IMG/VR virus record: IMGVR_UViG_2671180695_000017
Strand: one strand, 5' to 3'
Origin: a virus
Lineage: Duplodnaviria; Heunggongvirae; Uroviricota; Caudoviricetes
DNA: 8,231 bases
The notes below the pieces were generated by a model that saw nothing but the letters and a program-made list of their open reading frames with translations, was not told where the DNA came from and made no database searches. The translations under genes and the position numbers were made by a program. Shown here in pieces: positions 569 to 7,897 of the stretch (within the stretch, counting starts at the first letter, position 1; each line of letters starts with the position of its first letter).

Positions 569-721
569 ATTAAAGAGCATTAGTTCAGATGTGAATTGAC
601 ATTTTCATGGCGCAGGGTAGAGCCAGCGTGGTTGTCCGCTTTGCGTCAAAACCAGATATTACCAGATTTAGACATATATTCCCGATAGCCCTGCTCTGAT
701 GCTACACTCTGTGCTATTTTC

Positions 722-1408
722 ATGACCCCAATAAAAATATTTATGACTATTGCTGATTTCAAACGGCCTAAATTGGAGCTCCCAAACGGGGCAAACAAAC
801 TACTACTGCACTCTTGCTGTGCTCCATGTTCCGGTGAAGTGATGGAGGCGCTTCAGGCCTCGGGAATCGACTACACCATCTTTTTCTACAACCCGAACAT
901 TCATCCTCAGAAAGAGTATTTAATTCGTAAGGATGAAAATATTCGCTTTGCTGAACAACACGGCGTGCCGTTTATCGATGCTGATTACGACACCGACAAC
1001 TGGTTTGAACGTGCCAAAGGAATGGAATGGGAGCCTGAGAGGGGGATCCGTTGTACCATGTGTTTTGACATGCGTTTTGAGCGGACAGCGTTGTACGCTG
1101 CTGAAAATGGTTTCAGTGTGATCAGCAGTTCACTGGGCATTTCACGCTGGAAAAATATGCAGCAGGTTAACGAGTGTGGGCGGCGAGCTGTTGCGCATTA
1201 TCCGGGTATGGTGTACTGGGATTATAACTGGCGCAAGCAGGGCGGCTCGTCCCGTATGATTGAAATCAGCAAGCGCGAAAAATTCTATCAGCAGGAATAT
1301 TGTGGCTGTGTGTATTCTCTGCGCGATACCAATCTACACCGCAAATCTCAGGGACGCCCTCTTATCAAAATTGGCCAACTCCACTACGGAAAAGAAGAGA
1401 AGGAGTGA
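722..1408 (+). CDS. QueH-like protein (DUF208 family, putative epoxyqueuosine reductase)
   Basis: 228-aa ORF with the N-proximal motif [11 protein letters not shown], which I recall as the hallmark CCAPC cysteine cluster of DUF208/QueH, plus further conserved Cys (CTMC, CGC). No obvious Shine-Dalgarno before the ATG at 722; an alternative ATG lies at 743. Family assignment is from motif memory, not a search. Confidence 0.55.
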
Positions 1409-1440
1409 TTTTATGGATCACCTTTCTGATTGATTTCATA

Positions 1441-2242: not shown

Positions 2243-3525
2243 GTGCGGGTATTACTTCGACCTGTTCTGGTACCGGAACTCGGGCTGGTGATCGTTAAGC
2301 CGGGCCGTGAATCCATGCCGGTATTCCACAATACCCGGGTACTGGTGGAGCCGGAACCGAAAAGCATGCGTAATCTGTCGTCCGGGGTCGTTCCTGCCGT
2401 TCGCCAGCCGCTGGCGGAGGATAAATCATTACTGCCATTTTTCAGCGACGAACGAGTGATTCGTGCTGCTGGTGGCGCTGGCGCATTGTCTGACTGGTTA
2501 CTGCGCCATGTTAAATCCTGCCAGTGGCCACACGGCGATTATCACCACAGTGAAACCGTCATTCACCGTTATGGTACCGGCGCAATGGTGTTGTGCTGGC
2601 ACTGCGACAACCAGCTGCGCGACCAGACCTCCGAATCACTCGGGCAACTTGCTCACCAAAACCTGTTTGCATGGATGATTGACGTCATACGCCATGCAAT
2701 GAATGGCTCGCAGGAACGGGAATTATCGCTGGCTGAATTATCCTGGTGGGCGGTCCGCAATCAGGTGGCGGACGCGCTACCGGAAGCGGTATTACGTCAG
2801 GTACCGGCGCAATGGTGTTGTGCTGGCACTGCGACAACCAGCTGCGCGACCAGACCTCCGAATCACTCGGGCAACTTGCTCACCAAAACCTGTCTGCATG
2901 GATGATTGACGTCATACTCCATGCAATGATTGGCTCGCAGGAACGGGAATTATCGCTGGCTGAATTATCCTGGTGGGCGGTCCGCAATCAGGTGGCGGAC
3001 GCGCTACCGGAAGCGGTATTACGTCGTTCGCTGGGGTTGCGTGCGGAAAAAATCCGCTCAATGTACCGTGAAAGCGACATCGTACCGGGAGAGCAGACCG
3101 CCACCAGCATACTGAAGCAGCGCACAAAAAATCTTGCGCCGCTGCCTCACGCCCACCAGCAAAACCCGCCACAGGAAAAGACGGTGGTCAGCATTGCCGT
3201 TGATCCGGAGTCACCGGCTCAGTATCTCCAGCGCCAGAAATCACAACGGGAAGAGATGCCTGTATACACGCGTTGGGTAAAAACGCAGAAATGCATGACG
3301 TGTGGCAATCAGGCAGATGATCCGCATCACATCATTGGTCATGGACTGGGAGGGATGGGAACAAAGGCTGATGATTTGTTTGTTATTCCGCTGTGCCGTA
3401 AATGCCATAGCGAACTACACGCCGGGGTAAAAGATTTTGAAGAAAAACACGGCAGCCAGCTGTTGTTGCTGATTCGTTTTTTAATGCACGCGAGAAATTC
3501 GGGTGTTTTGAAGTGGAAAGCATAA
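2243..3525 (+). pseudogene. YbcO-like (DUF1364-type) zinc-binding putative nuclease gene with N-terminal extension, frame-disrupted by a 227-bp tandem duplication
   Basis: GTG at 2243 with GGAGG at 2234-2238. The frame-2 ORF 2243..2905 and the frame-1 ORF 2746..3525 encode the same ~75-aa stretch (GTGAMVLCWHCDNQLRDQTSESLGQLAHQNL...AVRNQVADALPEAVLR) because 2573-2799 is repeated at 2800-3026 (227 nt, equal to 2 mod 3). Removing one copy gives a single continuous 351-codon ORF ending at 3525. The C-terminus (CMTCGNQADDPHHIIGHG...IPLCRKCHSELH) has a CxxC...HH...CxxCH motif and sits directly upstream of rusA, as ybcO does in DLP12. Confidence 0.55.
2573..3026 (+). repeat. Tandem direct duplication, 2 x 227 bp, 3 mismatches between copies
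   Basis: Direct comparison: 2573-2799 and 2800-3026 are identical except three substitutions (ctgtTtgc vs ctgtCtgc; atacGcc vs atacTcc; atgaAtgg vs atgaTtgg). Junction ...attacgtc|ag|gtaccgg. Confidence 0.9.
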
Positions 3526-3906
3526 ATGACTGAACGCATAGAATTTGTTTTGCCTTACCCGCCAACGGTGAACACTTACTGGCGTCGTCGTGGCAGCACA
3601 TATTTTGTATCAAAAGCCGGGGAGCGTTATCGCCGGGCAGTGGCGCTTATTGTTCGCCAGCAGCGGCTGAAATTAAGCCTGTCCGGAAGGTTGGCAATAA
3701 AAATTATTGCAGAACCACCGGATAAGCGCCGCCGTGACCTGGACAATATTCTGAAAGCGCCGCTGGATGCGCTGACGCATGCGGGGTTGCTAATGGACGA
3801 TGAGCAGTTTGATGAAATCAATATCGTTCGTGCTCAGCCAGTATCTGGTGGACGTCTGGGGGTGAAGATTTACCCCATAATGCTTGAAGGGCAGGTCAAA
3901 AAATGA
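3526..3906 (+). CDS. rusA: RusA-family Holliday junction resolvase
   Basis: 126-aa protein with PPDKRRRDLDNILKAPLDALTHAGLLMDDEQ and GGRLGV, matching the conserved RusA core as I recall it for E. coli RusA ([23 protein letters not shown]...DD...GGRL). The ATG overlaps the upstream stop (TAAATG). Confidence 0.85.
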   Translation: MTERIEFVLPYPPTVNTYWRRRGSTYFVSKAGERYRRAVALIVRQQRLKLSLSGRLAIKIIAEPPDKRRRDLDNILKAPLDALTHAGLLMDDEQFDEINIVRAQPVSGGRLGVKIYPIMLEGQVKK

Positions 3907-4724
3907 AACTGGAAGATTTACCGAAATACTACTCCCCAAAATCCCCCGGCCTGACTGATGCATCGGCCTCAACGTCGAAAGATGCGCTGAGTATCACTGA
4001 TGTGATGGCCGCGCAGGGCATGACACCGAATCGGGCTGAGATGGGGTTTTCTGCGTTCCTTGGGAAAATGGGCATTAGTATGAATGACAGAGAGCGGGCA
4101 ACAGAATTGCTGACAGAATATGCACTCAGTCGGTGTGATCGCGTGGCGGCGTTAAGAAAACTCCCGGCAGAAATAAAACCGGTAGTGATGCGCATTATGG
4201 CTTCGTACGCTTTTGAGGATTATGCCCGCAGCGCAGCGAGTAAAAAGCAGTGCCCTTGTTGCTATGGGGAAAAATTTATTGAAAGCGTAGTTTTTACAAA
4301 CAAGGTCCAGTATCCGGATGGTAAGCCGCCGGTATGGGCAAAGTGTACGAAAGGTGTGTATCCGTCTTACTGGGAAGAATGGAAAAAAGTCAGGGAGGTG
4401 GTAAAAGTTGCCTGTCCGGAGTGTGGCGGAAAGGGTGAGGTTTCCACCGCCTGTAAGGATTGCCGTGGGCGTGGTGTCGCCATTCATCGTGAAGAGTCGG
4501 TAAAACGTGGTATGCCTGTTATCAGAGACTGCCAGCGTTGTGGTGGTCGTGGCTGTGAAAGACTACCATCAACGGAGGCATTTAATGCCATATGCAAAGT
4601 GACGAGTGCTATCACGCTTGATACGTGGAAAAAATCAGTGAAACGCTTTTACGATACGTTGGTGGTTCGGTTTGACATTGAAGAGGCATGGGCGGAGCGG
4701 CAGTTAAAGAGGGTAACGCGATAG
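3903..4724 (+). CDS. Putative late-gene antiterminator (Q-like) with DnaJ-type CxxCxGxG zinc-finger repeats
   Basis: Position is diagnostic: directly after rusA (ATGA overlap) and directly before a promoter that matches lambda PR' through its -10 and initial transcribed region. The protein carries CPCC plus three CxxCxGxG repeats (CPECGGKG, CKDCRGRG, CQRCGGRG). The N-terminus resembles what I recall of Qin-prophage Q homologues, but that recollection is not secure. Confidence 0.55.
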   Translation: MKLEDLPKYYSPKSPGLTDASASTSKDALSITDVMAAQGMTPNRAEMGFSAFLGKMGISMNDRERATELLTEYALSRCDRVAALRKLPAEIKPVVMRIMASYAFEDYARSAASKKQCPCCYGEKFIESVVFTNKVQYPDGKPPVWAKCTKGVYPSYWEEWKKVREVVKVACPECGGKGEVSTACKDCRGRGVAIHREESVKRGMPVIRDCQRCGGRGCERLPSTEAFNAICKVTSAITLDTWKKSVKRFYDTLVVRFDIEEAWAERQLKRVTR

Positions 4725-6397: not shown

Positions 6398-6473
6398 GGC
6401 CCTTTAGCTCAGTGGTGAGAGCGAGCGACTCATAATCGCCAGGTCGCTGGTTCAAATCCAGCAAGGGCCACCA
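6398..6473 (+). tRNA. tRNA with CAU anticodon, closest to E. coli tRNA-Ile2 (lysidine type, reads AUA); phage ileZ-like
   Basis: Manual cloverleaf: acceptor GGCCCTT/AAGGGCC, D-arm GCTC-AGTGGTGA-GAGC, anticodon loop CTCATAA (CAT at 6431-6433), T-arm GCTGG-TTCAAAT-CCAGC, discriminator A plus encoded CCA. Very similar to E. coli ileX as I recall it. Position 27-43 is an A-C mismatch. Confidence 0.85.
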
Positions 6474-6573: not shown

Positions 6574-6650
6574 GCGTTGTTAGCTCAGCCGGACAGAGCA
6601 ATTGCCTTCTAAGCAATCGGTCACTGGTTCGAATCCAGTACAGCGCGCCA
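6574..6650 (+). tRNA. tRNA-Arg (anticodon UCU, reads AGA/AGG); phage argO/argN-like
   Basis: Manual cloverleaf: acceptor GCGTTGT/ACAGCGC (one G-U pair), D-arm GCTC-AGCCGGACA-GAGC, anticodon stem ATTGC/GCAAT with loop CTTCTAA (TCT at 6608-6610), T-arm ACTGG-TTCGAAT-CCAGT, discriminator G plus CCA. Resembles E. coli argU. Confidence 0.85.
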
Positions 6651-7281: not shown

Positions 7282-7505
7282 CCGGGTATCAGTTAGCGGG
7301 AGAAATTTTTAAATACTTCACAATTCAGGCGGTTGATTGTTGTCTGGTTTGCGGGGAGTTTGTTAAAAGAAACTGGCATGGTGAATCCCCCTGTGCGGAG
7401 GGGCAATCAGCGAGTAGGTATATGGGATAATCGCGGATTCAGGTGCTGGTACTGAATTCACCGGGAGGCACCCGGCACCATGCAATGGCACATAGCGCCA
7501 CTCTC

Positions 7506-7535
7506 CAGCCCCTCTCCGGAGGGGCTGTTTATATT
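7506..7535 (+). terminator. Strong intrinsic terminator (+ strand) between the convergent cargo ORFs
   Basis: Perfect 9-bp GC-rich stem CAGCCCCTC / GAGGGGCTG (7506-7514 pairing with 7519-7527), TCCG tetraloop, followed by TTTATATTGATTTT. The opposite strand lacks a T-tract after the hairpin, so it is oriented to stop + strand transcripts. Confidence 0.55.
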
Positions 7536-7561
7536 GATTTTGTCAGATGTGAGTAAACTCC

Positions 7562-7897
7562 TTATGGACTTTGTTGTTTTAGTCCATAAGGACATATTTG
7601 CAGAGTGCAACGGTTATTAAAGCATTCATTCAATACGTTATCTGTATTTGTAGGGCATTCCTGGCTGTTTTTGATTAAATTCCAGAATGTTTTATTGAAT
7701 GGTACTACGTTGTAAATGGTTACAGGTAGCACTTTGTTATTGAGCATGATGCCTGTGTGAGTCAGTGTAAATATACTTTCAGGAGGTAAGAAAGCATCCG
7801 ATTGATACCAGATTATTAATTTTATTTTACTCCATATGACTGAAAAAGATATTCCGCATGATGGCTGGATAACTGTATCAATCACAATCCACTTCAT
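7562..7897 (-). CDS. Hypothetical cargo protein (111 aa) with C-terminal cysteine cluster, encoded antisense to the late operon
   Basis: ATG (7895-7897 on the minus strand) preceded by AAGGA with a 5-nt spacer. C-terminal C-x10-C-x4-C-x4-C pattern ([23 protein letters not shown]). The last 9 codons and the TAA stop lie inside a perfect 10-bp hairpin (7561-7590). About 33% GC. Confidence 0.45.

Follow-up and report, generated by a model that had tools for sequence, protein, structure and literature searches.

The locus analyzed here raises the question of why a lambdoid prophage of Escherichia coli should carry a gene for the last step of queuosine (Q) synthesis in a host that has an enzyme of its own for that step. 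Q is made only on tRNAs with a GUN anticodon, and the conversion of epoxyqueuosine (oQ) to Q, the last step, is carried out by either QueG or QueH (PMC5372724). The oQ reductase gene of E. coli, yjeS/queG, was identified in a knock-out screen; its product is a cobalamin enzyme, and the last step of Q synthesis was shown to be cobalamin-dependent (PMC4646009). QueH is regarded as a cobamide-independent alternative (PMC6461909). The DNA that we analyzed (hereafter, the window) is an 8,231-nt stretch of an IMG/VR virus record (IMGVR_UViG_2671180695_000017) in which a first-pass annotation had proposed a QueH-like gene. The answer that we favor, with a probability of roughly 60%, is that QueH was spread by phages and serves the lysogen as a B12-independent backup for QueG.

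The prophage ORF belongs to the QueH family

An uninterrupted ORF on the + strand extends from an ATG at position 722 to a stop codon at 1406–1408, corresponding to 228 aa. The first-pass annotation described this open frame correctly, but the start that it implied is probably not the true one. RefSeq/PGAP starts QueH at the second ATG, at position 743 (WP_000150294.1, 221 aa), codons 1–7 (722–742) are the most variable portion among the phage QueH alleles, and the region of the Enterobacter hormaechei orthologue that matches these codons contains neither an ATG nor an ORF. Because of these observations, we take the ATG at 743 as the probable real start, giving a CDS at 743..1408 (+; 221 aa plus stop), and the upstream in-frame ATG with its seven codons (722..742, +) as probable 5′ untranslated leader rather than coding sequence. 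Chromosomal QueH homologues are 214–222 aa long. Residue positions below are given in the 228-aa numbering.

The HSCCAPCS motif from which the QueH/DUF208 assignment had been made is present (H30–S37), and a profile HMM search bears the assignment out: Pfam PF02677 (QueH) matches the ORF protein over positions 1–174 of its 175-position profile, with an E value of 1.1e-65 and a score of 221.5 bits (cut-off 23.5). The solved chains of T. maritima QueH (TmQueH; PDB 7LC5 and mutants) match it as well, with an E value of 8e-22 for 7LC5. At the sequence level, both the PF02677 and the TmQueH matches are far above chance. A search of the ORF protein against NCBIfam returned no match, and the name QueH given by PGAP must therefore stem from another rule.

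In an alignment of the ORF protein with 40 relatives of 35–86% identity (41 sequences), all 16 invariant columns are kept in the ORF protein: C32, C33, C36, N59, Y66, R69, E106, R110, C111, C114, R118, K144, Q191, C194, G195, and C196. As for the putative Fe-S/metal ligands, every family-invariant cysteine (C32, C33, C36, C111, C114, C194, and C196; seven out of seven) is present, forming an N-terminal CCxP[C/D], a central CxxC, and a C-terminal CGC motif. The picture is unchanged when the comparison is widened to 76 representatives from clustering at 50% identity.

An AlphaFold2 model based on the 41-sequence alignment has a pLDDT of 94 and a pTM of 0.89, and its best five Foldseek matches in the PDB are the five TmQueH entries. 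The model superposes on the crystal structure 7LC5 with a target-normalised TM score of 0.92 and an rmsd of 1.2 Å over 179 columns, and the matches that follow TmQueH are only generic PP-loop ATPase folds (TtuA, LarE; E~1e-5). By profile, invariant residues, and fold, the 722–1408 ORF is a bona fide full-length member of the QueH/DUF208 family.

By analogy with TmQueH, which holds a [4Fe-4S] cluster and an adjacent iron, the prophage gene would encode a functional iron-sulfur enzyme with the same metal centers. Which QueH cysteine binds which metal was reportedly established by Li et al. in 2021. A point against a functional QueH is that Cys36 corresponds to Asp13 in TmQueH, a residue that the depositors mutated (9DCO, D13N), and that the variant with cysteine at this site has no solved structure, though it is usual among close relatives (66 of the 68 representatives with a residue at position 36).

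QueH occupies a variable slot in Qin-like prophages

The window belongs to a Qin/lambda-like prophage, and QueH lies there between the replication genes and hokD/sok. The prophage location given in the first-pass annotation is confirmed by the lambdoid gene order around QueH and by an element of E. coli O25b:H4 ST131 that is 98.8% identical over the window and is integrated beside ompW. The genes of the ST131 element run int-xis-exo-...-dicB-...-repressor(cI)/cro-ydaT-replication genes-DUF1627-DUF977-QueH-hokD and continue, after hokD, with DUF968-rusA-Q antiterminator-DNA methyltransferase-tRNA-tRNA-iraM-...-holin/lysozyme-terminase-capsid-portal.

A protein search of a phage collection returned 25 records, among which HannyBb (complete, 45 kb) is the only credible complete phage. 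Its QueH copy is 95% identical at the amino acid level, lies in the equivalent position, and is annotated as “hypothetical protein”. The others, which are either fragments from faecal viromes that lack annotation or “phage” records whose size of 280–380 kb is implausible, were discounted. PHROG 3217 (“unknown function”) matches residues 41–228 only (window 841–1408), omitting the CCAPC motif, and phage annotations seem to start QueH at Met41 and thus to drop this metal motif. Given the partial PHROG match and the “hypothetical protein” of HannyBb, phage-specific databases miss the QueH identity that is assigned by PGAP.

Several neighbors of QueH deserve separate mention. Directly downstream is a complete hok/sok type I toxin-antitoxin system (1476–1801), composed of the sok antisense RNA (1476–1651; Rfam RF01794, 120 bits) and a hokD ORF that ends at 1801; QueH and hok are found together in most phage backgrounds, hok being missing from 21 of 76 loci. 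The DUF968/HNH gene contains a 226-nt tandem direct duplication (2573–2798 and 2800–3025, 99% identical) that splits it into overlapping ORFs at 2243–2905 and 2746–3525, where the ST131 reference has a single intact gene of 1056 nt. The antiterminator Q homologue (3903–4724) is intact, with 273 aa and a DnaJ-type CXXCXGXG zinc-finger segment (sub-threshold in Pfam). In the ST131 reference, by contrast, Q carries a frameshift; decay is thus affecting different genes in different members of this prophage family. Farther along, a match to the STnc100 sRNA (7347–7536, +; RF02076, 132 bits, E=9e-30) adjoins an ORF on the − strand (7562–7897) that RefSeq names anti-adapter protein IraM and that has no Pfam match. 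On the other side of QueH, E. coli B and HannyBb have a methyltransferase fragment of 186–207 nt between DUF977 and QueH (L168:6735-6920 and L086:8762-8968) that the window lacks, so that the boundary on the upstream side of the QueH cassette varies as well.

The phage tRNA genes and DNA modification

Two further suggestions in the first-pass annotation, that QueH might be linked to the tRNA genes of the prophage or to a 7-deazaguanine-related pathway, did not hold up. Both tRNA genes lie downstream of the Q antiterminator and the DNA methylase. The first (6398–6473) has the anticodon CAU/CAT and is called Met by ARAGORN and Ile (lysidine tRNA-Ile2) by PGAP, and the second (6574–6650) is called tRNA-Arg, with anticodon UCU/TCT, by ARAGORN and PGAP. 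They are rare-codon (AUA, AGA) tRNAs, which we take to resemble those found downstream of Q in lambdoid phages. Because Q is placed only on tRNAs with GUN anticodons (PMC5372724), tRNAs with CAU and UCU anticodons are not queuosine substrates; the phage tRNAs are thus unrelated to QueH, and a functional link between them was rejected.

Phages are known to use preQ0-derived bases in their DNA (PMC6884629), and TmQueH crystals bind GMP and queuosine as free ligands, according to the titles of the PDB entries. One could therefore imagine that the prophage QueH acts on something other than oQ in tRNA, for example a 7-deazaguanine derivative in phage DNA or a free nucleoside, in the service of anti-restriction or defense. 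We consider this highly improbable. No gene for DpdA/TGT, QueA, FolE, or QueC/D/E is annotated in the 33.5 kb of prophage or the 18.7 kb of HannyBb that were examined, and a PADLOC defense search gave no match for QueH or its small neighbors. A DpdA-type system has a DNA transglycosylase and preQ0 genes in the phage; the ORFs of the window to which Pfam gives names are DUF977, Hok/Gef, DUF968/HNH, RusA, antiterminator Q, and an N6/N4 methylase. For want of such partner genes, we rejected a part for QueH in the 7-deazaguanine modification of DNA. Hutinet et al. also found no Q-specific genes in the viruses that they analyzed, those with modified DNA included (PMC6884629). Finally, the prophage protein is 78–91% identical to housekeeping QueH proteins and keeps all invariant residues, and QueH therefore shows no sign of neofunctionalisation.

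Apparent capture of a cellular QueH cassette

The nearest relatives outside Escherichia are the QueH proteins of E. hormaechei, Kluyvera, and Scandinavium, at 90–91% amino acid identity, followed at 78–89% by those of other Enterobacter, Serratia, Kosakonia, Erwinia, Proteus, Providencia, Photorhabdus, Pectobacterium, and Rahnella. Among 80 species-representative QueH loci, DUF977 and hok are neighbors of QueH only in E. albertii and S. flexneri, and the other loci are chromosomal. QueH lies among tmcA, purC, bamC, and dapA in Providencia, adjoins benE and toxin-complex genes in Photorhabdus, and sits between a small integrase-family ORF and budR-budABC in E. hormaechei. As is expected of a moron, the closest relatives of the phage gene are thus cellular chromosomal genes. 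The E. hormaechei ORF directly upstream of QueH (L090:5181-5885; 234 aa, Phage_integrase family, next to budR-budABC) may point to a hot spot of recombination or to what is left of an island, either of which would bear on the mobility of the cassette.

Alignments of the 5′ and 3′ flanks place the beginning of homology to E. hormaechei near ATTCCCGATAGC and its end just past TGATTTTATG. Phage and Enterobacter DNA are similar from ~65 nt before ATG 743 to a few bases beyond the stop codon, and outside 677–1415 the phage copies share further sequence only with each other. The segment common to the phage and the Enterobacter chromosomal loci (about 677..1415, +) takes in the putative promoter region, the gene, and a few bases past the stop. 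Because DNA homology is confined to this segment, which includes a conserved extended −10-like element, QueH looks like a cellular gene that was captured by lambdoid phages as a ~740 bp cassette (a moron). In the scenario that we propose, Qin-like lambdoid phages would have taken a cellular QueH closest to those of Enterobacter and Kluyvera, together with its own promoter, and the cassette would today occupy the variable “moron” slot that separates the replication genes from hokD/sok.

The conserved element, TGCTACACT (700..708, +), is located 35–43 nt upstream of ATG 743 and reads as a candidate extended −10 (TGnTAnnnT). When the upstream regions of six phage and chromosomal copies are aligned, ATGCTACA.T is invariant while the flanks have otherwise diverged. 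The string TGCTACA occurs 40–44 nt (mostly −43) upstream of the ATG at 10 of 83 loci, these being the phage copies and the closest chromosomal ones, and many of the remaining loci, those of the more distant homologues, carry TAnnnT-like hexamers about as far from the ATG. This pattern suggests that QueH travelled with its own promoter, as morons do. The candidate promoter has a poor −35 and no evident Shine-Dalgarno sequence, and a scan for consensus two-hexamer promoters on the + strand upstream of QueH returned nothing convincing and did not call TGCTACACT. An Rfam search at a permissive threshold found no preQ1 or cobalamin riboswitch upstream, its only matches being sok, STnc100, and the two tRNAs.

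QueH has the orientation of the early-right operon, and a terminator scan predicted no terminator between the replication genes and QueH or between QueH and sok/hok. With this orientation and no upstream terminator, expression could be confined to lytic growth, and QueH might then serve the phage: early-right transcription after induction would keep Q34 tRNAs matured, tuning the decoding of NAU/NAC codons during late-protein synthesis. The strand and position of QueH, upstream of the Q antiterminator, are indeed those of the delayed-early “nin-region” genes, and the viable phage HannyBb keeps the gene. We nevertheless think a benefit of this kind unlikely. The conserved promoter-like element came along from the chromosomal source, related prophages such as K-12 Qin lack QueH, and QueH is intact in prophages that are unable to grow lytically, such as the Qin-like remnant of E. 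coli B and the window with its broken DUF968. The tRNA pool also turns over slowly relative to the lytic cycle.

QueH coexists with QueG in E. coli

QueH is present in 995 of 5426 complete E. coli genomes (about 18%), with 985 of the 995 copies covering at least 80% of the gene and 707 being at least 99% identical; all of the QueH matches listed carry the label “epoxyqueuosine reductase QueH”. QueH occurs in ST131 and in an O157:H7 strain, as well as in the laboratory strains B (REL606, ATCC 11303), C, and ATCC 8739 (Crooks), whose allele is 94% identical at the DNA level. QueH is also found in prophage settings in E. albertii and Shigella (S. flexneri), and 189 viral contigs in IMG/VR carry it. 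In K-12 Qin, the equivalent slot upstream of hokD is occupied by flxA-ydfV-relBE, with no QueH there. QueH thus has the further property of a moron that it is located in phage genomes (the ompW-adjacent prophage and HannyBb) but is dispensable and variably present, as its absence from the K-12 Qin slot illustrates.

Since queG is found in 5426 out of 5426 complete E. coli genomes, all 995 QueH carriers hold both reductases, and the pattern expected if QueH replaced QueG, with QueH present where queG is absent, is not seen among these 5426 genomes. Coexistence with queG does not disqualify the gene from the QueH family: in a parallel case, S. aureus naturally keeps both QueG and QueH, with differing expression profiles (PMC13443448). 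QueG is also found in Citrobacter, Salmonella, Cronobacter, Pantoea, and Enterobacter ludwigii; in Enterobacter and Pantoea, it overlaps with QueH at the level of the genus. The premise of the first-pass annotation that enterobacteria normally rely on QueG is therefore sound for E. coli but too broad for the order, because chromosomal QueH of 78–91% identity occurs in Enterobacter, Kluyvera, Scandinavium, Erwinia, Serratia, Providencia, Proteus, Photorhabdus, and others.

Purifying selection and persistence

The universal presence of QueG in E. coli raises the possibility that QueH is a neutral passenger, a cellular gene that hitch-hiked recently and that, whether active or not, confers no benefit and has been spread by a common prophage family. 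No phenotype is known that separates oQ from Q, and the 707 of 995 copies with at least 99% identity are consistent with recent spread. The substitution pattern argues the other way. By the Nei-Gojobori method, dN/dS is 0.071 relative to HannyBb (34 synonymous and 11 non-synonymous differences, dS 0.29), 0.062 relative to the S. flexneri prophage copy, and 0.033 relative to E. hormaechei. QueH is under purifying selection, and values of 0.06–0.07 across alleles that are separated by a dS of up to 0.29 speak against a passenger.

QueH is also intact where adjacent phage genes have been truncated, frameshifted, or replaced. It is intact in this window, where DUF968 is broken by the 226-nt tandem duplication, in the ST131 reference, where the Q antiterminator is frameshifted, and in the decayed Qin-like prophage of E. 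coli B, which has an IS3 insertion and truncated DUF968 and tail genes. The 80 viral contigs that encode a 100% identical QueH protein are mosaic around it: hok is missing from 21 of the 76 loci long enough to judge, the Q antiterminator of the window is missing from 35 of 66, and the DUF977 beside the identical QueH allele ranges from 60 to 100% identity across contigs. Taking these observations together with the dN/dS values, we regard the neutral passenger as a rather unlikely explanation.

Proposed role in lysogens

We therefore return to the reading that QueH backs up QueG in the lysogen. As judged from its family membership, QueH would need no cobalamin to reduce oQ34 to Q34 in tRNA-Asp, -Asn, -His, and -Tyr, and its expression in the lysogen would come from the promoter carried by the cassette. 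The lysogen would in this way gain a B12-independent route in a host whose only native oQ reductase is QueG. Because QueG needs cobalamin, which E. coli cannot make de novo, the lysogen should be able to finish Q synthesis when B12 is lacking or its import is prevented. This would fit with the report that wild-type E. coli has much more oQ and much less Q in B12-free M9 than in LB (PMC7026641).

What the host would gain is less clear. Corrinoids are usually available in the gut, and we know of no established fitness difference or phenotype that separates oQ from Q; a benefit to the host is therefore uncertain. In a broader version of the proposal, the cobalamin-independent oQ reductase is a lysogenic-conversion gene that lambdoid phages spread among E. 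coli, E. albertii, and Shigella, such that carriers finish Q without B12 and K-12-like strains stall at oQ; for this, we would give slightly less than even odds.

The QueH call as such is no novelty, since about 1000 E. coli genomes already bear this gene name from PGAP, and with the family, fold, and automatic annotation already in place, no new enzyme or mechanism is involved. Our searches of the searchable literature on QueH/DUF208 with phage or prophage found no paper that discusses QueH as a phage gene. Hutinet et al. (2019) reported no homologues of QueA, QueG, or QueH in the viruses that they analyzed, and an active prophage QueH would qualify this published absence of Q-specific genes (PMC6884629). 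It would place an auxiliary gene of phages in the queuosine pathway of tRNA, something of which we found no earlier report in the same literature, and it would add cofactor independence to the list of prophage cargo functions.

If the proposal is correct, the oQ/Q status of E. coli tRNA would depend on the strain as well as on the medium: B/REL606, C, ATCC 8739, many ST131 strains, and some O157:H7 strains would, unlike K-12, not stall at oQ in B12-free medium. This would bear on studies of tRNA modification, on the phenotypes of queG mutants, and on the choice of expression host. More speculatively, QueH could matter in B12-poor niches such as urine and blood, or after loss of BtuB, the B12 receptor, which is also a phage and colicin receptor.

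Comparison with known systems

The closest structurally characterized relative is TmQueH (PDB 7LC5; DUF208, PF02677/IPR003828), with which the prophage protein shares a full-length profile match, the fold, the CC.../CxxC/CGC cysteines, and R110, R118, K144, and Q191. It differs in being only ~30% identical, in having Cys36 in place of Asp13, and in having an extra tail of ~25 residues. The setting differs as well: the copy in the window is borne by a prophage and is found beside QueG in the cell, rather than in place of it.

Relative to QueG (YjeS), QueH would catalyze the equivalent reaction, from oQ34-tRNA to Q34-tRNA (PMC5372724), and the two are present in one cell. They are unrelated in fold and cofactors, QueG using cobalamin and two [4Fe-4S] clusters (PMC4646009), and whereas QueG is core and chromosomal in E. 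coli, QueH is here accessory and phage-borne. The chromosomal QueH proteins of Enterobacterales are much more similar, with 78–91% amino acid identity, the same length, and, in the nearest of them, the TGCTACA(C/A)T element upstream. Their genes, however, lie among housekeeping or metabolic genes rather than phage genes, and DUF977 and hok border the gene only in Escherichia, E. albertii, and Shigella.

In its genomic behavior, QueH resembles the morons and lysogenic-conversion genes of lambdoid prophages: its function is not a phage function, and its presence varies among related prophages. It occupies the same variable slot upstream of hokD as other morons of the nin-Q region, such as relBE and flxA of K-12 Qin, with hokD/sok itself another example. 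It is set apart from these by the nature of its cargo, which is a tRNA-modification enzyme.
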